Source of the DNA: Pseudanabaena sp. OTE_70b_metabat_355
Lineage (GTDB): Bacteria > Cyanobacteriota > Cyanobacteriia > Pseudanabaenales > Pseudanabaenaceae
Assembly (NCBI GenBank): GCA_031377675.1
Contig: JANMFC010000526.1
Location: 120-64,119, forward strand
Direction of reading: 5' to 3'
Length of the DNA stretch: 64,000 nt
Below the pieces are notes generated by a model. It saw nothing but the letters and a program-made list of their open reading frames with translations, made no database searches and was not told the origin of the DNA. This document shows positions 19,823 to 31,117 of the stretch, in pieces. Both the position numbers and the translations under genes were made by a program. Numbering within the stretch: position 1 is the stretch's first letter; each line of letters starts with the position of its first letter.

Positions 19823-22786
19823 ATGATGCATCATCCCGACCCGAACGAGAAGTCCCGTGAACAAAGAATGGTAAAGAAGGACGCGGTTATGCGTCGTCTT
19901 CTTGCGGCGACTTTGTCTGTCAGCAGCTTGTGGCAGCTCATGCCCCCCACCGCAGTAGCACAAGTTGCTACTCCTCTGACTGCGGCTGGTACAGCGATCG
20001 ATAACACCGCCACAGGTACTTACATTGATCCCAATACTGGCACAGTGATAAACGCCACATCTAACCCAGTCACGGCGACAGTGGCTGAGGTAGCTGGTGT
20101 AACTGTCGTTTCGTCAGGAACGATCGACGTAAACGGCGGTAGTGTCACTACTGGTGATTTTGTTAATTACAGCTTCTTGATTACCAATACTGGTAACGAT
20201 CGCACGGCTCTGCACATTCCTACTTCCGCGACTACTACAGCAGCTGGTACTCTTGGTACAACTACACTGCCTGCTGTTCCGAACGTATTGCCTGCTACTG
20301 GGAGCAGAAGTGTATATGTCACCGAAATTAATGGCGTAGTCTTAACCTCACCTGTACTACTGCCTGCGAGTGGTAATACGAATGATCCTTTATTTATTAC
20401 TGCCGTTAATGGTTTAGCCTCTGGGGCTCTTCTCCCACCAGTAGGCGATATTCCGTTAGGTGCTGGCAGTATTCCTATTGGTGGCACGATCAAGGTGGTT
20501 GTCCCTGTCACGATCGCCGCAACGACCGCAGGTACACTAATACCAGTAACTTTGGGTAATACAGGAACTTATGTTGGCGATGTTGGCACTAACACCCAAA
20601 ACCAACCTGATGCGGGAAATCCGACTGCTATCCCACCTACTCCAGTTGAAACTGGCACTGATCTCGGTGGAGCAGATGAAGTCTACACCATCAACGTGAC
20701 CACAGCTTTACGAGCTACAGCACCCGCTAATGGCGTTCGTGAAGCCAGTGCCAAAAACACACAGACTCTTGCGACCCAAATCAATAACCTCGCCCTAGCG
20801 ACCGTCCTCAAAAAGCGCATCGGCTATGATACCAAGGGTACTGCAAGCTTTGCCGATGACACGCTAACCTATCGACTAGACTTGAATGTCGAAACATCCG
20901 CACCTGCTGGCAGTACAGGTATTACACCTGGGGCATTGACTGGTACAGCTATCAGAACCAAAGCCAATTCAGGCGTACTTGTAGCAACAACGGAAAATAA
21001 GGTCTTAATTTCTGATGTCATTCCTGCCAACACGATCTTAGATGTATCAGCATTAACACCTGCCACGGTGACCATTAATGGTGTGGTTTGGACAAGGGTT
21101 TATAGCACTCAACCTACAACAATTTCCGCATTAGCGCCTACTCAAGAGTGGTTGCTTGACGTTCCAACTGGTACTCCTGTTGTAACCCGCATTGGTTACA
21201 TTGCCAATGGTCCGATCGCATCAGGTTACTCAACCACAGGTGCTAGTGATCTTCTTGCGTTGAGAGTTCAAGTCATCACAACTGGGCTTACCGCTGTAAG
21301 CTCACCTGTGACGATCGCCAACATTGCCCAAGTCTTTGGTCAAACAGCACCTACTAGCGGTCCAGTTCTTGCGATTAGTCCGACCAATCCTCTGGTTTAT
21401 GACGAATCAGGCGACCAAAATCCGAACAACTACGAAAGTGGTTCTCCATCCGTACCCTCGTTCACCGATCCTCTATTTCCTGCTGCTGGTGTACCTCCTC
21501 TGCCCACTGGTATTGCAAGTCCTACAGGTGCCAACGGCACTGACACCAATGGAGTTGGCAACAACAACACAGGTACTGGACCTGGTGGGGAAGATAACAC
21601 CTTCACGATTAACCCTCTTGGCTCGGTCTTAAATGGTCCTCCAGGACAAGCAGGCGCGGTCGGACCTAACGGAAATAACACCGACTTTGTTAACAAATCC
21701 TTAGCCCTTCCTGCTGGTTTAGCATCTGGTCTTGCTCTCAGTACTGCTACGCCTGCGATTACGCTTGCCCAGCGCACCGTTGTCTTTACCAATACAGTTC
21801 AGAACCCCTCCACCAACACAGCCCAGTTGGACAACGTAACTTTGGAGCCAATCACGGCTGCTCAAGCTGCGGCTGCACCTACACCTGCCTTAGCTCTAGC
21901 AGACTTTGTGCTTCCAACTACAAGCAATGGTGAACCTTTACCTAATGGCACTACGGTCACAATTGCCTATCCTGTTGGTTCTGTTGCTGGTGTATCGGGA
22001 AATACAGCCACTTACACATTAAGTGCGACTGGGTTTGATCTAACCCAAAGCACAATTGGTGCTGTAACTTCTACAACAGGTGTCGCAGTTAAGCCAGTCA
22101 GAATCAATTCTATTGCCATCGGTGATCCTCAGGACTACAACGTAATTGTGGTATTGCCAGTCTCCGCCCTTGCGACAAGAGCCTATTCTGTGCCGATCGT
22201 CGCTTATGTAGACAGTAACGTCAGTAACTCAGGTGTTCTTGGTACTGGTAGTGGCACTGTTGCTGATCCTTTCAGAGGTGGATTCAAGAGTTTTGATTCA
22301 GATGCACCATTCAACATCAAGATTGATCGCGTGTACACAGGCTACTTGGATCTCGATAAGAAATCTCGCGTCATTCAAGGAACTGGTCCCGCAGTAGCTG
22401 CTGGTGACGTAGCGTTTTCCAATAGTGCAAAGAGTCCAGCCCCTGGAAACATTCTTGAGTACCTTCTTACTTACAAAAACATTTCCACACTCGCAATTGG
22501 CACTGCCAATGTCGTTTTGAATGCGAACAACATCGTTATTACTGAAGATGGCGCGACTCTTCCTAACAACTGGGCTACGACAACTTTGAACGTGCCTAGT
22601 ACTGCCACTGTAGCCTTAGATGCTGCTGGCGTTGCGACCCCTACTTACAGCGCTGTGATCACCTTCTTCAACGGTGCGACAGCTGTGACGACAGTAGATC
22701 CCAACGTAACTAGGTATCTCGATAGCATCCCATCTCTAACCCCTGGTCAGACTGGATTCTTCAGATTCCAACGTCAGGTCAAATAG
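19823..22786 (+). CDS. Secreted beta-strand-rich DUF11-like surface protein, 987 aa (candidate major filament subunit)
   Basis: Signal peptide ending AVA|Q, N-terminal AAGTAIDNTATGTY motif, Ig/DUF11-like domains, and a C-terminal DUF11-like domain ending GFFRFQRQVK. Confidence 0.85.
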   Translation: MMHHPDPNEKSREQRMVKKDAVMRRLLAATLSVSSLWQLMPPTAVAQVATPLTAAGTAIDNTATGTYIDPNTGTVINATSNPVTATVAEVAGVTVVSSGTIDVNGGSVTTGDFVNYSFLITNTGNDRTALHIPTSATTTAAGTLGTTTLPAVPNVLPATGSRSVYVTEINGVVLTSPVLLPASGNTNDPLFITAVNGLASGALLPPVGDIPLGAGSIPIGGTIKVVVPVTIAATTAGTLIPVTLGNTGTYVGDVGTNTQNQPDAGNPTAIPPTPVETGTDLGGADEVYTINVTTALRATAPANGVREASAKNTQTLATQINNLALATVLKKRIGYDTKGTASFADDTLTYRLDLNVETSAPAGSTGITPGALTGTAIRTKANSGVLVATTENKVLISDVIPANTILDVSALTPATVTINGVVWTRVYSTQPTTISALAPTQEWLLDVPTGTPVVTRIGYIANGPIASGYSTTGASDLLALRVQVITTGLTAVSSPVTIANIAQVFGQTAPTSGPVLAISPTNPLVYDESGDQNPNNYESGSPSVPSFTDPLFPAAGVPPLPTGIASPTGANGTDTNGVGNNNTGTGPGGEDNTFTINPLGSVLNGPPGQAGAVGPNGNNTDFVNKSLALPAGLASGLALSTATPAITLAQRTVVFTNTVQNPSTNTAQLDNVTLEPITAAQAAAAPTPALALADFVLPTTSNGEPLPNGTTVTIAYPVGSVAGVSGNTATYTLSATGFDLTQSTIGAVTSTTGVAVKPVRINSIAIGDPQDYNVIVVLPVSALATRAYSVPIVAYVDSNVSNSGVLGTGSGTVADPFRGGFKSFDSDAPFNIKIDRVYTGYLDLDKKSRVIQGTGPAVAAGDVAFSNSAKSPAPGNILEYLLTYKNISTLAIGTANVVLNANNIVITEDGATLPNNWATTTLNVPSTATVALDAAGVATPTYSAVITFFNGATAVTTVDPNVTRYLDSIPSLTPGQTGFFRFQRQVK

Positions 22787-22798
22787 TAGTTGATCGGC

Positions 22799-22841
22799 AT
22801 GGAGTAACTAGGATTACATTTACTAATCCTAGTTACTCCAT
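22799..22841 (+). terminator. Perfect 18-bp stem hairpin just after the 987-aa gene
   Basis: ATGGAGTAACTAGGATTA-N7-TAATCCTAGTTACTCCAT. Confidence 0.7.
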
Positions 22842-22996
22842 TCTTAATTGAGATAGGGAACATTTGGGTTCCAATGTCAAGTCAAGTAGATAATTGATCT
22901 TTGAATTATTAACTAGGCTTAGCTAGGTAGCTTGCCTAGTTAGTACTTCCTTGCCCAAATACTATTCACACATTGTTCACAACTCAGACAAACCAA

Positions 22997-23563
22997 ATGA
23001 AACGTATAAACTTAATTGGCTTAGGCGCGATCGCCTTGATCGCCACGACTGCTTTTTCTGGAGTGATGCCAGGACTAGCCACCTTGCAGTCGCGTGACAC
23101 CGCGATCGCCCAGACCGCTAAACAAGATTCTCCCGTCAAATTAGTTCTCGCTGCCGAAAAAAGAGCATTACTTGATATTGTCTCTGGACAGAACAAATGG
23201 GTTCCACTTGCGCCTAACGCATCACTACAGCCTGGCGAAACAATTCGTTATGTCGTCACCGCCAGCAATACCAGCGATCGCGCCATCAAAAATCTAGTTG
23301 TGACTCAACCGATTCCCAAAGGTTCAGTTTATGTTCTAAACTCAGCAACCTTACCCAGTATTGACGGAGCAAAGGTAGAGTACAGCATCGATGGCGGCAA
23401 AAACTACAGCGCCAAACCCACAATTCGCGTCAAGAACGAAAACGGCGAAATTGTCACTAAGCCTGCACCTGAGACTATGTATACAAATGTCCGATGGACT
23501 TTTGGTGAGAGTCTTTCTCCAAAAACAGCTTCCAACGCAACTTATCAGGTTCGCATTCGCTAG
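22997..23563 (+). CDS. Secreted single DUF11-like domain protein (candidate periplasmic chaperone/cap)
   Basis: Signal peptide MKRINLIGLGAIALIATTA..., PGETIRYVVTASN, NLVVTQPIP, ends ATYQVRIR; ATG at 22997 preferred over TTG 22973. Confidence 0.85.
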   Translation: MKRINLIGLGAIALIATTAFSGVMPGLATLQSRDTAIAQTAKQDSPVKLVLAAEKRALLDIVSGQNKWVPLAPNASLQPGETIRYVVTASNTSDRAIKNLVVTQPIPKGSVYVLNSATLPSIDGAKVEYSIDGGKNYSAKPTIRVKNENGEIVTKPAPETMYTNVRWTFGESLSPKTASNATYQVRIR

Positions 23564-23642
23564 ACATTTTTCTTTGCGAAGCTTTTCATAACGTTGTTCT
23601 TTGTAAGGACGCAATTGATAAATCTCTTTCTGCTAGCGTGAC

Positions 23643-23716
23643 AGGGCAAGCACGGGGGCATTGCCCCTACCCGAATAATTCATGATCTGTAGGGGCTGCG
23701 CCCCCGTGCCAGCCCT
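23643..23716. repeat. GTAG-type REP doublet (REPIN-like)
   Basis: AGGGCAAGCACGGGGGCATTGCCCCTAC ... GTAGGGGCTGCGCCCCCGTGCCAGCCCT in inverted orientation. Confidence 0.75.
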
Positions 23717-23777
23717 CAATCATGAGGATCGCTAATTTTTAAAGATGCTTTAAGGCAATTTGAGGTTACTTGTTTCA

Positions 23778-25364
23778 ATGAAGATTAAAAGTTGCACAAC
23801 AAAACAAAAAATTCTGCGAAACAGCTTCAAGTTTGCCGCAACTATTCTGATGGCTGCATCTCAAATCTGCCAATCCGCCCTTGCACAAGGACAGTCTCAA
23901 CAAAGACGACCTGAACGAAGAGCAACATCAGCAGCCACGGTTGAAATTTTTAACACGGCTGCGTATCAATACAGCTTTCCCGATCCCAATGATCCTAAAA
24001 AAGAAATTACTATTAAGAGTGAGTCGGCACAACTTCAAGCGGAACTGATTGACCCGTTCGGTAGGGTGACAGCTTGTGATGGTGGGCTTCTGTCTGATTA
24101 CACAGGCTTTAGTGTCGGTTTGTATGAGCCTCTTAACGATCTTGGTGACTTTGGCTTGCCAATCGTTTTAACTGGGACAGTGCCGCCAAATCAAGTCTCA
24201 GCTAGTAATCGATTTGTGGGACTAGAGCCAAATTTTTATAATATTAATCCCTTTTTCTTAACCAACGGCGATCAAGGCAAATTTAACTTCCTGTATGACG
24301 ACAGTCGTGGTCAAGTTGATATCGGTCGTGTCAATATTCTTGTCGTAAAAACTGCTGCTAACTCATCTTTAGGTGGAAGAAGAATAAAGATTACGATCAC
24401 TTCACGGGTTGGAAACATTGTCGGCTATACAGCGACTTCGTTAGACGGAAAAGCAATTACCACAGATGGTGGAGGCACTTCGGTTAACGGTACGATTGAC
24501 GTTGCTAATGCCGCTACAGTTGGACTTGGCTTGGCGGTGTTTAATCTTGCCATTTCATCATGCGATGCCGTATCTCTACAAATTTTAAAGACAGGCGATC
24601 GCGCTGCTGCACAACCTGGCGATATCGTCATTTATCGCTTAAATATTCGCAACCTTTCTACATCCGCAATCAGAGATCCTGAAGTTCGCGATGATTTGCC
24701 GCTCGGATTTCAATATGCAGAAGGCTCCGTAAAAGCTGAATTTGGTGGAGTACAAGTTCCCGTCACCATCGAAAAGAACGGCAGAAGTCTGATCTTCCGT
24801 CCCAACATAGAACTCCCTAGTGCCAGAGACAATGTTGCGTTGACGGTCGTTTATGCCGCACAAGTTACCAATGATGCCATTCGTGGCACAGGCATCAATC
24901 GCGCCACAGTTCAAGGAACACTTAGTTCTAATAACTCGATCGTCCGTGACGGTCCCGCATTTCATAAGCTCAGAGTTAGCCCCGGAATTTTGTCTGATTG
25001 TGGAACTTTAGTCGGTCGAGTATTTGTCGATAAGAACTTTGATGGCGAGCAGCAACCAGGCGAACCAGGAGTTCCCAATGCTGTGCTTTATATGGACGAT
25101 GGTAATCGGATTGTCACCGATCCTAATGGTCTATATTCTCAAAGTTGCGTACTTTCTGGCAGTCGGACTTTAGCGATCGACCTAACTTCTGTGCCTGGCT
25201 ATACCCTCGCGCCAAATCTGTATTTTGCCGAACGCAATAGTCAATCTCGATTGGTACGCTTAGCCCCTGGCAGTTTAAATCGAGTTAACTTTGCGGTTAC
25301 TCCCGTTGCGCGTGGACTAAGTACCAACATTAACAGTAAGCCAGAACAAGGTGGAGCAAAATAA
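23778..25364 (+). CDS. Secreted DUF11 + SdrD-B-like domain protein (candidate base/anchor subunit)
   Basis: Signal peptide; EIFNTAAYQY motif; one complete DUF11 domain (LQILK...RDDLP...GINRATV); C-terminal GRVFVDKNFDGEQQPGEPG. The stop overlaps the next ATG (TAATG). Confidence 0.85.
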   Translation: MKIKSCTTKQKILRNSFKFAATILMAASQICQSALAQGQSQQRRPERRATSAATVEIFNTAAYQYSFPDPNDPKKEITIKSESAQLQAELIDPFGRVTACDGGLLSDYTGFSVGLYEPLNDLGDFGLPIVLTGTVPPNQVSASNRFVGLEPNFYNINPFFLTNGDQGKFNFLYDDSRGQVDIGRVNILVVKTAANSSLGGRRIKITITSRVGNIVGYTATSLDGKAITTDGGGTSVNGTIDVANAATVGLGLAVFNLAISSCDAVSLQILKTGDRAAAQPGDIVIYRLNIRNLSTSAIRDPEVRDDLPLGFQYAEGSVKAEFGGVQVPVTIEKNGRSLIFRPNIELPSARDNVALTVVYAAQVTNDAIRGTGINRATVQGTLSSNNSIVRDGPAFHKLRVSPGILSDCGTLVGRVFVDKNFDGEQQPGEPGVPNAVLYMDDGNRIVTDPNGLYSQSCVLSGSRTLAIDLTSVPGYTLAPNLYFAERNSQSRLVRLAPGSLNRVNFAVTPVARGLSTNINSKPEQGGAK

Positions 25365-28300
25365 TGAAAAACACTTCTGCTCCTCTTCTCAAGCTAGCAA
25401 TTTTCGCCTTCCCGCAAGTGATGTTGTTGCTGATTGCACCATCAGTAAGAGCGGATGTAGTCTCAGATGTAAGCACCGAAAGCAAAAAAACTGACATCAA
25501 ACAAAAAGACTCGTTAGCGAATCCAGTTAAAGTTTTACCTGTTAACGCTGAATCGGTAAAGGTTGAGCCTATATCGGTAAAAGTTGAGGCGATCGCTTCT
25601 CCAAAAGTCGATCCCCAAAACATTACCATCGAAAAGCCTGCCGAAAAGCCTACTGAAAAGGTAACAGGTCAAAACGAACCCGCAAACACTGCTAACCTGA
25701 CAACAAATCCTCCAAAAAATCCTCCAAAAAATCCAACAGTCTCTCAATCTCCCGTTGCCCCAGAAACTACTCCAAATCCCACTACACCAACCCCAGCTAC
25801 CGCTCCAACTAATTCCACTTCGCCACGCATAACCATCCTCTCGCCCACCGCTAACACGGTGATGGATGCTCCCGCCGCAACAGTGGTAATCCAAAGCCCT
25901 AGCAATACCAAAGTTGAACTTTTGGTAAATGGCAAACTCGTTGACTCTAATTCAATTGGGCGATCGGAATTAGATGAAGTCAATAAAACCATCACGCAGA
26001 CTTGGTATGGCGTACCCCTACAAGCAGGTGAAAACATCCTTTCCGCAAGGGTCGCAGGAACTGAGCAAACCCTGAGTTCAGTCACTGTCAAAGTCAGAGG
26101 CACACCCGTCAAACTGGCGATCAATACCCTAGAATCGCGCATTCCTGCGGATGGACGCTCGTATGCCACAGTTGATGGACAACTCGTTGATGAGAATGGC
26201 AATCGCTCCAATTGGGATGCGATCGTTACTTTACAGGCTAGCGATGGTGAGTTTATTGGTACTGATGCGTCACCAGAGCAGCCAGGGTTTCAGGTTCAAG
26301 CCAAGCAAGGTAAATTTACCGCGCAATTAAAATCGGGGCTGAAAGCAGGCACAATCATCATCCGAGCGCAAAATGCTCAGATGGAAACTTTTACGCAGGT
26401 TCAGTTTGAGACGGATTTGCGTCCATCCTTAGTCACGGGTGTAATCGATCTACGGGTTGGTGCTAGAGGTACGGATTTTTATCGTAGTTTGCGTGAGTTT
26501 TTACCTAGCGATCGCGATAATCGCACTCAAGTCGATCTCTATGGCGCTGTGTTCGGCACAGGTCGAGTGGGCGAATGGCTAGTCACAGGCGCATATAACA
26601 ATAGCCGCACCCTTAATCAAGATTGCAGTGGTAACAGTAGCCTATTTAGTGGCGAAAAATATTGCGGTACGCAATATCCCGTCTATGGCGATAGCTCGAC
26701 CGCGTCCCAAGCCGCCCGTTCCTACGACAGTTTATATTTGCGTTTTGAGCGGACTTCATCCGTAAAAGATGCCAGCCCCGACTACTTCATGTGGGGTAAC
26801 TTCAATACTGAGGAGTTTGCCTCGCGATCGCAGCAATATTCTTCCATTTCGCGTCAACTACATGGAGCCAAAGGTAATTTTAATCTTGGTGATGTGCAGC
26901 TCACGGGATTTTATAGCAATGTCGGCAAAGGCTTTCAACGCGATACGATCGCTCCCAATGGCACAAGTGGAACTTACTTTCTCTCGCGTCAGCTATTAAT
27001 TAGTGGCAGTGAGAATGTATTTGTCGAGCTAGTTGATTTCTTTAGTGCAGGAACAGTGGTTTCTCGTAAAGAAGCGGTGCGGGGCAAAGACTACGACATC
27101 AACTACGACAATGGCTCATTGCTATTTCGGCAGCCTCTTTATCAAACCGAACTAGGTGATAAGGGCGAACTCCTGCGCCGTCAGGTTGTGATTACCTATC
27201 AAAATGAACAAGCAGGCGGAGATAGTAGTATCTACGGCGGACAACTGCGCTATCACCTCAATCGCAGCCAATCTCAACCAAGTTCACTCGCTGTAAATTA
27301 TTTCAAAGAAAGTCAAGGGATTCGTAATTTTGTCCTGTATGGGGCAAATGCGCTAATTTCGTTTAGCGAAAAAACTCAACTAACAGCCGAATATGCCCGA
27401 TCAGAGAATGATTCGGAAGTTGTGGGATTTGTGAGTGGTTCGGCATATCGATTTGAATTAAATAGCGAGATTGCAGGTATCCTCGGCAAAATCTACTACA
27501 ACAAAGCTGAGACAGGTTTTGCGAATAATGCCACGATCAGTTTTGTGCCAGGGCAGACTAGGTTCGGCACACAGTTAAGTGCTAAGGTCGGCTCTACGAC
27601 AGATCTAAGATTTCAATACGAGCAGGAAAATAATAATGGCATCGCGCCCCGCCCTTTAACTGTTCTCACCGATTTGCTTACTCCCCGTCAGGAAGCAGTT
27701 CCAGGTACGGCGGTGGATAATTCCTTACGCACGATTAGCTTTGGATTGCAGCAAAATATTGGCGCGGCTCTGCTCAATCTCGATCTGCTCTATCGCGATC
27801 GCCAAGATCGCCAAACACCAAATGTACTATCGAGCAACTCAACCCAACTGCGATCGCGGGTATCAGTGCCGATCGCCGAGAACCTCAAATTTTCTGCTCA
27901 AAATGAAGTCAGTCTCTCCTCTAGCGCTGATGCCGTAATTCCCGATCGCAGTGTTGTCTCTCTAGATTGGACAATTGTTCAAGGCTTGACCGCAAGATTG
28001 GGTCAGCAATGGTTCCATTCAGGCGCTTTAGCAGGAAGTTCGATTACCAGTGCGGATTTGCTGGGAGAATATAGACTCGGCACTGATACTAGTTTGACGG
28101 GGCGTTATTCCGTTGTCGGTGGCGGCAACACCACCTCTACACAGGGTTCGGTAGGACTGAATCAGCGTTGGCAAATCATGCCAGGTTTGCGCTTAGGGTT
28201 TGGCTATGAAAAAGTATTTGGCACGTTTGCTTCCGCAACCACGACCGCGACAGGCACGCAGTTTCAGCAGCCTGTCGCGGTTGGGCAGTCCTCTAGCTCT

Positions 28301-31117
28301 TTGACTAGCCAGAGTGGTGATAGCTACAATATCGGACTGGAATATACCGACAACCCCGATCTGAAGGGCAGTATCAGGTTTGAGAATCGTAGTGGCAACA
28401 ACAGCAGCAACACGGTGCTTAGCGCTTCGGTTCTCGGTAAACTCACGCCTGCGATGAGCATGATGTTCAACTATCAGCAGTCTAGCGCCGCCAACCAAGG
28501 ACTGTCAGGTATGGGGACGATCGCTAATCTCAGGGTGGGGCTAGCCTATCGCGATCCCCAAGATGATAAATTTAATGCTCTACTTCGTTATGAATACCGC
28601 CAAAATCCGAGCATTATTCCCGAATCACTGTTGATTGGTGGCGGTAGTGGCTATGTTGATCACACTCTCGCCCTTGAAGCGCTTTATGCTCCTAACTGGC
28701 AATGGGAATTTTATGGCAAGCTCGCACTCCGCAACAGCACCACCACGATCGCTAAAGACTTTACGGGTGTATCCAATACCAACTTGACTCAGTTTCGAGC
28801 TACCTATCGTGCGGGTTATAACGTGGAGCTTGTGGGTGAAGCGAGAATGCTCAACCAGCCCACCGCAGGCTATAGCGAAATCGGATTAGTGGGAGAAGTT
28901 GGCTATTACCTGACCCCTGATTTACGCTTAGCTTTGGGCTATAGCAGTGGTTCGATTAATACCGATCGCGATTTTAGTGGTTCGCGCTCCGCAGGTGGAC
29001 TATATGCAGGGATCACGGTTAAGCTCAACGAATTGTTTGATGGCTTTGGTTTACAAAAGACTCCACCACGTCAGCAACAGGAGCCAATCGATCCGCAAAC
29101 ACCTGTATTGCAGGAGCCAAAACCCGCCCAAAAATTATCGGCGGCTTTAACGTCTGACGAAACTCAGATCATTAGCTTGAACGTAGCGCGATCGCTGACA
29201 TTCCAAGATAGCAAGCAAGGCGATAGTGCCGAGTTAGCCGCCTCAGACATTGCGATTCTGGAAAACCTTGCCTCAGTCTTAAAAGAATTTAACAATCTCT
29301 CCATTGATATCCAAGGACAAATTGGTTCTCTTGCCGATATGAATTCGGGTGAGAATGTGGCGGCGAATCGGATGATGGCGGCGAGAAAATATCTACTCAA
29401 TCGCGGTGTTGCTTCTAATCAAATGACTTTACGTTCATTGGGTGCTGTGGCGGCTACACCTAGCAATCCTGATAGTAAGATTGCATCAGCAAATTCTTCG
29501 GCAAACGCCATGCCGATCAGCTTTGCACTCACAGGTCGCGCCGATATCTTTAACGCGATCGCTACGAGACTGCAAACGATGGCAACGAGTACGCCAGCGA
29601 CTGAATTTTTACAAGCAATTTTACCGAAGGTTGAGCCGACTCTCCAAGCTAATGCTGCGATCGCGCCCACCAATGCTCCTAATCGACCCGTTGCGAATAC
29701 GACTGTGGGGGTCAACTTTAGTAATGACGGTAGAATTGCCGACTTGAGCTATGCCACCCTCGATCGCTTGATCGAGCGACTGAAGGCTAACCCCAACGCA
29801 ACTACCGAAATTCAATCTGGCTCAGCGCTAACGGCTTCAGCAACTCAAGATCTGGATATGTTTAGGCTGACCGCAATCAGAGAATACTTGCTGGATAAGG
29901 GAATTAGTTCCGATCGCATTTTACTCAGTACAAATAGCGCGACTAATAATCAGGCGGCTTCGGCACAGGTATTAATTTCGCTCAATGTCGATGATGCTAA
30001 CACCAACATCGCGGCAACGCCGACTACTCCAACCACACAAGCAAGTTCTCAAACTACTCCAACTACTCAAGCAAGTTCTCAAACTACTCCAACTCCACAG
30101 GCTAGCGCTACGACCGCGCCTGTTCCACTTGCTAGCGCTGACATCTTGAACTCGCCATTAGCAATGCTGCTAAACAATGGCGATCGCCGCCTCAATAGTT
30201 GGCTCGAAAGTTCGTTGCCCAACTTGCCATTTGTTGATGCGTTCAATCCTCAATTTAATGGTCAATTCAATCTCCAGTTTATTGACGCACTCCAAATTCC
30301 AAGCTCTGTTCCTAGCGTTGGACTCACCCAATTGTTAACTCAGTTACCCGTAACTACCGATTCGCTGTTATTAGCGATCGCCCCTGCTGAGAATAATAAT
30401 CCTAAGCCGACATCTAGTCTTTGGAGCTATGCCTTTGAGAACTCAACAACACAACTCATGAGCAAGTTGCTCGATCTGTCCACACCGCTTGCCACAGCCA
30501 ACACTACCCCCGCTACACAGGCTAGCGCCACAACTGAAGTTATACCCTTGGCAAGTGCAAATACTCTAGTCTCGCCATTGGCGCTGTTGTTAGATGGCAG
30601 CGATCGCCGCTTCAACAATTGGATCGAAAGCTCGTTACCAGACTTTATATTTAATAGTCAAGTTAATACTCTATTCACTGGTCAGTTTAGTGACTCGTTC
30701 CGAGTATCTAATACGGGAGCGACTCAACTGTTAACTCAATTGCCAATCACTCCTGAAGCATTGCTATTGGCGATCGCGCCTATTGATCGGTCAGTCGATA
30801 ACAAGCCCACATTACCAACAGCCGAATCTAGTCGCATCTTGAGTTACTACTTTGACAATTCGCCCACACAACTCGTAAGTTTATTATTGGGTAATGAACG
30901 GGCGGCTAATAGTCCATCGGCAATTAACAATAATGCTCAGGCTAACGCCAATAGCCCCGATGACAGCGCCAATCGTCGTCTTGCAAACGCCTTTAACTTC
31001 CTGTTAAGTAAGGATGGCGACACGGTGACAGCGTTCCTGCGATCGCTGGGAATTAGTAGTACCGAGAAAAGCGGCTTTGTGATTGACCCCGCTCAATTCA
31101 ATCAGATTAAGAATTAG
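25364..31117 (+). CDS. Very large predicted outer-membrane beta-barrel protein with N-terminal Ig-like domains and C-terminal OmpA-like domains, 1917 aa
   Basis: Signal peptide, P/T linker, Ig-like domains (PADGRSYATV), about 870 aa of amphipathic beta-strands ending GLYAGITVKLNELF, two degenerate OmpA-like segments, and a duplicated C-terminal repeat. Confidence 0.75.
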   Translation: MKNTSAPLLKLAIFAFPQVMLLLIAPSVRADVVSDVSTESKKTDIKQKDSLANPVKVLPVNAESVKVEPISVKVEAIASPKVDPQNITIEKPAEKPTEKVTGQNEPANTANLTTNPPKNPPKNPTVSQSPVAPETTPNPTTPTPATAPTNSTSPRITILSPTANTVMDAPAATVVIQSPSNTKVELLVNGKLVDSNSIGRSELDEVNKTITQTWYGVPLQAGENILSARVAGTEQTLSSVTVKVRGTPVKLAINTLESRIPADGRSYATVDGQLVDENGNRSNWDAIVTLQASDGEFIGTDASPEQPGFQVQAKQGKFTAQLKSGLKAGTIIIRAQNAQMETFTQVQFETDLRPSLVTGVIDLRVGARGTDFYRSLREFLPSDRDNRTQVDLYGAVFGTGRVGEWLVTGAYNNSRTLNQDCSGNSSLFSGEKYCGTQYPVYGDSSTASQAARSYDSLYLRFERTSSVKDASPDYFMWGNFNTEEFASRSQQYSSISRQLHGAKGNFNLGDVQLTGFYSNVGKGFQRDTIAPNGTSGTYFLSRQLLISGSENVFVELVDFFSAGTVVSRKEAVRGKDYDINYDNGSLLFRQPLYQTELGDKGELLRRQVVITYQNEQAGGDSSIYGGQLRYHLNRSQSQPSSLAVNYFKESQGIRNFVLYGANALISFSEKTQLTAEYARSENDSEVVGFVSGSAYRFELNSEIAGILGKIYYNKAETGFANNATISFVPGQTRFGTQLSAKVGSTTDLRFQYEQENNNGIAPRPLTVLTDLLTPRQEAVPGTAVDNSLRTISFGLQQNIGAALLNLDLLYRDRQDRQTPNVLSSNSTQLRSRVSVPIAENLKFSAQNEVSLSSSADAVIPDRSVVSLDWTIVQGLTARLGQQWFHSGALAGSSITSADLLGEYRLGTDTSLTGRYSVVGGGNTTSTQGSVGLNQRWQIMPGLRLGFGYEKVFGTFASATTTATGTQFQQPVAVGQSSSSLTSQSGDSYNIGLEYTDNPDLKGSIRFENRSGNNSSNTVLSASVLGKLTPAMSMMFNYQQSSAANQGLSGMGTIANLRVGLAYRDPQDDKFNALLRYEYRQNPSIIPESLLIGGGSGYVDHTLALEALYAPNWQWEFYGKLALRNSTTTIAKDFTGVSNTNLTQFRATYRAGYNVELVGEARMLNQPTAGYSEIGLVGEVGYYLTPDLRLALGYSSGSINTDRDFSGSRSAGGLYAGITVKLNELFDGFGLQKTPPRQQQEPIDPQTPVLQEPKPAQKLSAALTSDETQIISLNVARSLTFQDSKQGDSAELAASDIAILENLASVLKEFNNLSIDIQGQIGSLADMNSGENVAANRMMAARKYLLNRGVASNQMTLRSLGAVAATPSNPDSKIASANSSANAMPISFALTGRADIFNAIATRLQTMATSTPATEFLQAILPKVEPTLQANAAIAPTNAPNRPVANTTVGVNFSNDGRIADLSYATLDRLIERLKANPNATTEIQSGSALTASATQDLDMFRLTAIREYLLDKGISSDRILLSTNSATNNQAASAQVLISLNVDDANTNIAATPTTPTTQASSQTTPTTQASSQTTPTPQASATTAPVPLASADILNSPLAMLLNNGDRRLNSWLESSLPNLPFVDAFNPQFNGQFNLQFIDALQIPSSVPSVGLTQLLTQLPVTTDSLLLAIAPAENNNPKPTSSLWSYAFENSTTQLMSKLLDLSTPLATANTTPATQASATTEVIPLASANTLVSPLALLLDGSDRRFNNWIESSLPDFIFNSQVNTLFTGQFSDSFRVSNTGATQLLTQLPITPEALLLAIAPIDRSVDNKPTLPTAESSRILSYYFDNSPTQLVSLLLGNERAANSPSAINNNAQANANSPDDSANRRLANAFNFLLSKDGDTVTAFLRSLGISSTEKSGFVIDPAQFNQIKN
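30022..30110 (+). repeat. In-frame 30-nt tandem repeat (TTPTTQASSQ, about 3 copies)
   Basis: actactccaaccacacaagcaagttctcaa / actactccaactactcaagcaagttctcaa / actactccaactccacaggctagc. Confidence 0.85.

Follow-up and report, generated by a model that had tools for sequence, protein, structure and literature searches.

A putative donor-only subunit coupled, and in other bacteria fused, to an outer-membrane barrel protein: putative base of a split-CLIPPER fibre in Pseudanabaena

PapH, the terminator and anchor of P pili, gives its N-terminal strand to the last rod subunit; as it cannot itself receive a strand, growth stops there, and the fibre is kept attached to the assembly barrel of the outer membrane. 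A gene whose product may play a comparable part lies in the 64,000 nucleotides analysed here (hereafter the window; Pseudanabaena sp. OTE_70b_metabat_355, GenBank assembly GCA_031377675.1, contig JANMFC010000526.1, positions 120 to 64,119 of the forward strand). Its product, P0001 (528 residues), is on balance probably a donor-only basal subunit, the body of which would sit 1:1 on or in the barrel of ~40 strands formed by the protein encoded next to it (P0002, 1917 amino acids (aa)), and the N-terminal hairpin of which would plug into the last fibre subunit at its half-domain, where a Lys-Asn isopeptide bond probably locks it. Like PapH, P0001 would be a strand-giving, non-receiving base encoded in one operon with the barrel; unlike PapH, to which it has no sequence or family relation, it offers a hairpin of two strands instead of one, with an Asn placed for a covalent bond. 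Neither a PapD-type chaperone nor a PapC/FimD-family usher was detected by Pfam and NCBIfam in the six cluster proteins scanned (P0001–P0004, P0006 and P0007), and the barrel of P0002 has ~40 strands against 24 in the usher. As no usher or chaperone family was found in this set, and as P0001 has three complete pilin-like domains and a two-strand hairpin, its assignment to the chaperone-usher class was rejected.

Mfa2 and FimB, the anchors and length regulators of type V pili, are basal, stop elongation, tie a strand-exchanged fibre to the outer membrane and act last (PMC8512630). They are lipid-anchored, protease-matured lipoproteins, whereas P0001 is tied to a barrel protein and has no lipobox (the signal peptide ends ALA/QG, and the Cys at residue 31 is outside a lipobox context), so that it was rejected as a type V pilus anchor. 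The best structural matches of P0001 found by Foldseek are the three-domain Gram-positive pilins BcpA (3KPT), EbpB (9LR7, basal) and SpaA/SpaD, together with SdrD/UafA. These pilins have a CnaB-CnaA-CnaB arrangement with an internal Lys-Asp-Asn isopeptide site, and the basal pilin roots the fibre in peptidoglycan; P0001 would instead be rooted in an outer-membrane barrel through a link self-catalysed by strand complementation. It contains no LPXTG anywhere and no hydrophobic tail (its C-terminus is ...NFAVTPVARGLSTNINSKPEQGGAK), no sortase-family match was obtained in the six proteins scanned, and its identification as a sortase pilin was rejected on the missing LPXTG.

Two further systems are related in principle. 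The archaeal thread of Saci_0406 combines donor-strand complementation with intermolecular isopeptide bonds from the α-amino group of Asp24 to Asn57, and the co-transcribed Saci_0405, which has a donor strand without an acceptor site, is a putative cap (PMC9715654). P0001 is comparable with Saci_0405 as a donor-only putative cap, but the fold and the bond chemistry differ, and an outer membrane and barrel are absent from the archaeal system. The CLIPPER and DUF7925 domains were named in a study of single-chain fibrillar adhesins, where the only bonds described are those within a single chain (PMC12617251; PDB 9IFR); unlike the system considered here, that study describes neither a CLIPPER-type domain split between two proteins nor a barrel partner. 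The Acinetobacter protein behind 9IFR was considered as a fused form of such a kind and rejected, as the same paper gives it a different architecture. P0001 combines an Asn hairpin at its N-terminus with the lack of a half-domain at its C-terminus, and its gene directly precedes the barrel gene (to which its relatives are in part fused); these are the features of the anchor in what we define here as the split-CLIPPER fibre kit. No paper describing this kit was found in a literature search.

Pairing and natural fusion with the barrel protein

A barrel-gene homologue lies directly downstream of the P0001 homologue, on the same strand, in 78/78 cyanobacterial loci with enough downstream DNA. The stop and start codons overlap in at least 71 of these (ATGA in 53, TAATG or TAGTG in 18), three more being ambiguous. 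In the window the last A of the P0001 TAA is the first base of the P0002 ATG (25364), and the TAATG overlap of the two genes reported in an earlier note on this DNA, made from the sequence alone, is therefore real. The same note had predicted natural fusions between homologues of the two proteins (there taken as 534 aa and 1917 aa), and these were found. A search covering longer proteins and every cluster representative yielded 31 clusters of proteins of ~900–2300 aa, where a P0001-like module (residues 90 to ~507 in some, ~260–507 in others) is N-terminal of a P0002-like region (residues 156 to ~1230); their named sources are Thermodesulfobacteriota, Desulfatibacillum and Opitutales, in addition to soil metagenomes. 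An alignment of these fusions was used to scan metagenomes and returned 80 loci, in which all 78 that have both parts are one open frame of ~1850–1950 aa. The order in the non-cyanobacterial fusions is invariably P0001 module, immunoglobulin-like (Ig) pair, barrel, with the join falling after the SdrD-B-like domain and ahead of the Ig pair, a position that is occupied in the window by the short tail of P0001 and the Pro/Thr-rich linker preceding the Ig pair of P0002. Given the fusions, the invariable adjacency and the frequent overlap, a physical 1:1 partnership of P0001 with the barrel is very likely.

In their mature form the fusions begin with the donor-like motif and end with the barrel, and a donor-only subunit is therefore the barrel-proximal end of any chain. 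This fixes the polarity, with the hairpin outermost and the body of P0001 beside the barrel. The conserved anchor body (residues 87 to ~510) is invariably the C-terminal end of the anchor, and its gene stands directly before the barrel gene in the loci examined. The stalk between the motif and this body varies from 0 to ~1600 aa (200 to ~1600 aa in the longer cyanobacterial anchors), and it is made of long DUF11 arrays in fused anchors.

The barrel itself was modelled from 49 sequences over P0002 residues 156–1260 (predicted local distance difference test (pLDDT) 79.6, predicted template modelling score 0.67). The model contains two Ig domains resembling those of intimin/invasin (Z ~12), followed by ~40 long strands, with a small β insertion at model residues 382–442. 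Fold neighbours of the barrel, at the level of the general fold only, are Deinococcus SlpA, FimD/PapC (Z 11.5–11.7, root-mean-square deviation 7.2–7.4 Å, 300–319 residues aligned), LptD, MtrB and SprA. By sequence P0002 has no pilus-usher, secretin, autotransporter or Omp85 family match in Pfam, NCBIfam or a search of solved structures, the last of which recovered OmpA-like parts only; neither Pfam nor NCBIfam gives an intimin/invasin β-domain match, and the clusters that the protein atlas returned for the barrel are all unnamed outer-membrane proteins. Between the split forms of cyanobacteria and the fused forms of other bacteria, P0002 is best conserved at residues 436–555 (~26669-27028), a segment that contains YP[VL][YF]GDSS and L-Y-x-R-x-E/D-R; it adjoins the small β insertion of the model and could be a plug or gate. 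Residues 1261–1917 (29144-31117) comprise two OmpA-like segments and twice-repeated Thr/Pro-rich modules of ~190 aa. This OmpA-like extension beyond residue 1260 was observed in the Pseudanabaena homologues, and most other cyanobacterial homologues end near residue 1240. Eight cyanobacterial genomes (G144, G080, G278, G268, G346, G038, G180 and G284) carry two copies of the barrel gene at separate places.

Domains of the subunit and its N-terminal hairpin

The earlier note had described P0001 as an N-terminal donor-like motif, one complete DUF11 domain and a C-terminal SdrD-B-like domain, with no truncated acceptor. Each of these elements is borne out, and a CnaB-like domain (residues 91–262), in which the pair Cys100/Cys262 is invariant in the alignment, is added to them. 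The AlphaFold model, built on 28 homologues, leaves residues 1–62 disordered (pLDDT <50) and places after them a loose hairpin (strands 62–69 and 72–82, pLDDT 63–71) that is unpacked against its own chain, a β domain of moderate confidence (95–241), and two confident sandwiches, namely CLIPPER (267–397, pLDDT 85–92) and a complete one of nine strands (409–509). Three whole β-sandwich domains are thus predicted, none of them a truncated acceptor. The middle domain is assigned to CLIPPER/DUF11 on its profile matches (PF01345, residues 267–386, 30.6 bits against a cut-off of 24.6; TIGR01451, 41.4 bits against 24, E 1e-10) and on its triad K271 (first strand), D305 (catalytic Asp) and N374 (penultimate strand), which is present in 75/75 family members; an internal isopeptide bond is predicted for it. 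The fimbrial isopeptide domain of NCBIfam matches P0001 below its cut-off. The C-terminal domain scores below the cut-off of SdrD_B (PF17210, residues 414–479, 21.5 bits against 29.7), though its sandwich is complete in the model; many homologues carry a precomputed match, and the domain contains a calcium-type loop, D-x-N-x-D-G...E.

The family of P0001 comprises more than 2000 relatives of ~500 aa, with 48–57% identity between cyanobacterial orders, and occurs in 578 species genomes. Its distribution is patchy, as 54 of 401 evenly sampled Cyanobacteriota genomes contain it. Mean identity to distant members is 0.30 in the N-terminal motif, 0.47 in the N-domain, 0.49 in CLIPPER and 0.74 in the SdrD-B-like domain (ranges of 0.74–0.81 for the last and 0.30–0.56 for the remainder of P0001), so that constraint is strongest on the C-terminal domain. 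It is a candidate docking surface.

The donor-like motif spans residues 55–88. The first strand of the hairpin reads I-F-N59-T-A-A-Y-Q-Y in P0001 (general form I-x-N59-x-A-x-Y-x-Y), with Asn at the position of N59 in 72/75 family members, and the second strand stops directly before L-I-D-P. The first strand matches the mature N-termini of the 987-, 740- and 275-aa neighbours (P0003, P0006 and P0308). The motif recurs in most fused anchors, which open right after the signal peptide with (P)AGTxIxNxAxAxY...SxxVTVTV, as the 987-, 740- and 275-aa proteins do, and which have Asn at the key position in 53 of the 59 motifs found. In 40 fused loci the anchor motif and the adjoining shaft motif agree at 0.42 per residue over both strands (controls, being random pieces of the same shaft protein, 0.10 ± 0.04, maximum 0.26); the corresponding value in 48 cyanobacterial loci, between the anchor and the shaft protein of the same locus, is 0.23 (controls 0.08). 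The geometry of the modelled hairpin mirrors strands 373–382 and 388–397 of the CLIPPER domain of P0001 itself, the first strand starting with the Asn, and this pattern and geometry suggest a kinship of the motif to the last two DUF11 strands. The motif is missing from two exported proteins of the cluster (2841 aa and 196 aa), which would be those capping the chain.

The putative receiver of the hairpin is the shaft-type 987-aa protein P0003, where an N-terminal donor motif is accompanied by a C-terminal half-domain with an invariant Lys in the motif L-x-K-x-S-R, an invariant Glu in I-T-E-D-G and no Asn-bearing strand. According to PMC12617251, Nostoc sp. PCC 7120 carries a homologue of the shaft protein, Q8YS00. 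In hhalign the last domain of the shaft family aligns only to columns 5–105 of the 139 of complete CLIPPER, and this half-domain is likely to receive the P0001 hairpin. The cyanobacterial gene order is 987-aa DUF7925 protein, 196-aa DUF11 protein, P0001, barrel, the shaft gene being upstream in most loci; homologues of the 196-aa and 987-aa proteins are likewise directly upstream of fused anchors in 50/50 loci with enough DNA.

One cyanobacterial direct fusion (L082, G128:C47:8656-12558, flanks L168 and L169) is a 1301-aa protein that joins the P0001 body to the barrel without the two Ig domains. Its hairpin is incomplete, the second strand being gone and only a short L-T-N remnant left. It is flanked by housekeeping genes, adjoining cysS and the Rubisco accumulation factor (Raf1) gene, with no other kit gene within ~9 kb, and DUF7925 was not found in its host genome (99% complete). 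That the only cyanobacterial fusion, which lacks a complete motif, comes from a genome where no shaft gene was found is counted in favour of a donor role. A different opening occurs in two Pseudanabaena frigida-type anchors of ~1000 aa (P0128 and P0129, loci L016 and L017), which have C-A-T-P-G-K-D-G...N-T-Y-Y-P-G after the signal peptide and no 987-aa or 196-aa homologue within 10 kb upstream.

Several observations weigh against a basal donor that is docked on the barrel. The anchor-shaft likeness in cyanobacteria is mostly confined to strand one of the motif, where a few of the matches are imposed by the motif search. Isolated N-terminal fragments of three subunits have no DUF11 match in Pfam, and the alignment of the motif to full CLIPPER by hhalign is not significant, the anchor alignment being disturbed by long-insert variants. 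Ser, Ala or Val replaces the motif Asn in some fused anchors, so that the covalent lock is not universal. One locus (L014) has the motif and no shaft gene within 10 kb upstream. The linker in the fusions is flexible and 50–110 aa long, and the fusions therefore prove co-function and not a rigid interface.

Assembly at the barrel and alternative roles

In the following scheme we infer that strands are donated and a covalent bond is formed, and likewise where P0001 docks and in which order the parts assemble. P0001 would be exported by Sec, and its three complete domains would fold in the periplasm (CnaB-like with a disulfide, CLIPPER with its own triad, and the calcium-type SdrD-B-like domain). 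The conserved C-terminal body would bind the barrel protein at the periplasmic face or inside the lumen, one copy per barrel, at a P0001:P0002 ratio of 1:1 that would be ensured by translational coupling. The free hairpin would provide the pair of strands that the last fibre subunit (987-aa type) lacks in its C-terminal half-domain, with Asn59 placed for an isopeptide bond with the Lys of that half-domain. P0001 would thus close the chain at its cell-proximal end and tie it to the barrel, and nothing could be added below it, as it has no half-domain of its own.

The earlier note had called P0001 a candidate base and initiator. The base is supported by the polarity of the fusions, as the cell-proximal end; the initiator is the weaker half, and a terminator is likelier, on the chaperone-usher analogy in which a strand-giving, non-receiving subunit ends growth at the base. 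An initiating P0001 would dock on the barrel first, with its hairpin at the surface, and secreted subunits would be added outward, acceptor onto free donor, until the acceptor-only 2841-aa adhesin caps the chain. We regard this order as unlikely. It agrees with the fused forms, where the base belongs permanently to the barrel protein and so is present before any fibre, and with some loci that have an anchor and acceptor-bearing adhesins with no shaft gene nearby, as for a short 'anchor plus adhesin' product. However, for growth at the distal end, subunits would have to reach the tip outside the cell with neither an energy source nor a guide, the last to act in chaperone-usher and type V pili are donor-only or anchor subunits, and a tethered base could still insert last if the fibre were threaded through the same barrel.

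P0001 could also be a plug or adaptor of the translocon that remains outside the fibre, as LptE in LptD or MtrA in MtrB, with a motif that binds incoming subunits transiently for priming or in a chaperone-like manner. A barrel of ~40 strands needs closing, its structural neighbours LptD, MtrB and SprA all hold a partner protein, and the 1:1 coupling, the fusions and the highly conserved body are as expected of a plug. The LptE-LptD and MtrA-MtrB pairs do resemble P0001-P0002 in having one soluble partner in or under a large barrel, but the likeness is one of general fold only, and these pairs move lipopolysaccharide or electrons, not fibres. The conserved Asn at a bond-forming position argues for a permanent link, and fused forms have long DUF11 arrays between motif and body, like surface stalks, which makes a role restricted to plugging improbable; plug and fibre root are mutually compatible.

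Still less probable is a role of P0001 as a passenger detached from an autotransporter-like protein. It would then be a short stalk on the barrel, with a motif that is part of the fold or an adhesive tip, and would form no polymer. A fused N-terminal Ig-like passenger followed by a C-terminal barrel recalls type V secretion, and the Ig pair beside the barrel resembles intimin/invasin domains; however, the motif is common to proteins ending in a Lys/Glu half-domain without the Asn strand, the same multi-gene kit accompanies the cyanobacterial pair and the fusions, and P0002 matches no autotransporter β-domain family. That the barrel reads the motif as an export or targeting signal, instead of its being a structural strand, is hardly credible, since, despite its position directly after the signal peptide in most kit proteins, the 2841-aa and 196-aa proteins are exported without it (for which reason it was rejected as a general export signal) and anchors already fused to the barrel keep it.

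Features of the locus and significance of the pair

The features are collected in Table 1. An alternative in-frame TTG start for P0001 at 23760 is less likely than the ATG, as homologues begin with MKI/MKK. A beta-helix/OmpA protein, and proteins ending in a shared C-terminal module, often follow the barrel gene in cyanobacterial loci. The repeats of the 2841-aa protein were not delimited by a family-specific hidden Markov model, which was too narrow. Downstream of a fused anchor-barrel gene from a soil metagenome (L104, 17910-22052) is a protein of 1380 aa that starts with a G8-like segment and has a weak DUF7619-type match close to its C-terminus; it is possibly an acceptor-bearing adhesin of that system.

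Table 1. Features of P0001, its barrel partner and two upstream kit members in the window (coordinates in the window)
Feature	Position	Strand	Basis
P0001 gene, 528 residues; ATG 23778, TAA 25362-25364	23778..25364	+	open reading frame and translation
P0001 signal peptide, residues 1-36, end ALA/QG	23778..23885	+	read from translation; aligned N-termini
P0001 N-terminal donor-like hairpin, residues 52-88	23931..24041	+	conservation; model; motif common to neighbours
P0001 CnaB/transthyretin-like N-domain, residues 91-262	24048..24563	+	alignment; moderate-confidence model; pilin-like fold matches
P0001 complete DUF11/CLIPPER domain, residues 265-400	24570..24977	+	Pfam and NCBIfam; triad; model; profile match to solved CLIPPER 9IFR
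P0001 SdrD-B-like C-terminal domain, residues 405-510	24990..25307	+	conservation; nine-strand sandwich in model; Pfam sub-threshold
Translational coupling P0001 to P0002	25353..25366	+	GGAG, 7-nt spacer, TAATG
P0002 gene, 1917-aa outer-membrane protein	25364..31117	+	Pfam OmpA and Invasin_D3 matches; AlphaFold; fold neighbours
P0002 two invasin/intimin-like Ig domains	25829-26413	+	model; fold match
P0002 barrel, ~40 strands	~26429-29023	+	model
P0003, 987-aa shaft-type subunit, DUF7925	19823..22786	+	Pfam; family consensus; hhalign
P0007, 196-aa single-DUF11 protein, conserved kit member	22973..23563	+	Pfam/NCBIfam; locus conservation

Two palindromic elements precede P0001. A perfect 18-bp stem at 22799-22841, directly 3' of the 987-aa gene and followed by a weak T-run, could reduce read-through towards the anchor and barrel genes. 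A palindrome of ~90 nt (23634-23724; RNA fold -54 kcal/mol, z -5) occupies the gap that separates P0001 from the 196-aa gene, and at least eight near-full copies of it, with 88–98% identity, are present on other contigs of the same genome; as its copies recur across the genome, it is a dispersed repeat resembling repetitive extragenic palindromes or miniature inverted-repeat transposable elements (REP/MITE-like) and not an operon-specific signal.

A wider claim, plausible but more tentative than the basal role itself, is that a new class of Gram-negative surface fibres is rooted in the P0001-P0002 pair, where a single-use assembly platform of ~40 strands has a partner, detached in cyanobacteria and fused elsewhere, whose natural SpyTag-like hairpin covalently clicks the fibre to the outer membrane without sortase, chaperone or ATP, and where gene fission at the flexible linker gave rise to the coupled pair. 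If true, P0001 would be the piece that ties an undescribed and widespread fibre to the cell, the kit being present in at least 578 cyanobacterial species genomes and its fused form in Verrucomicrobiota, Thermodesulfobacteriota and soil bacteria. The system would represent a sortase-free and chaperone-free rooting of covalent fibres in the outer membrane, a natural instance of an isopeptide domain split to serve assembly, and a clear example of gene fission/fusion marking a protein-protein interface. P0001 offers compact experimental handles, namely one Asn, one gene and one protein pair, and such fibres probably bear on the adhesion, mat formation and biofilms of cyanobacteria.

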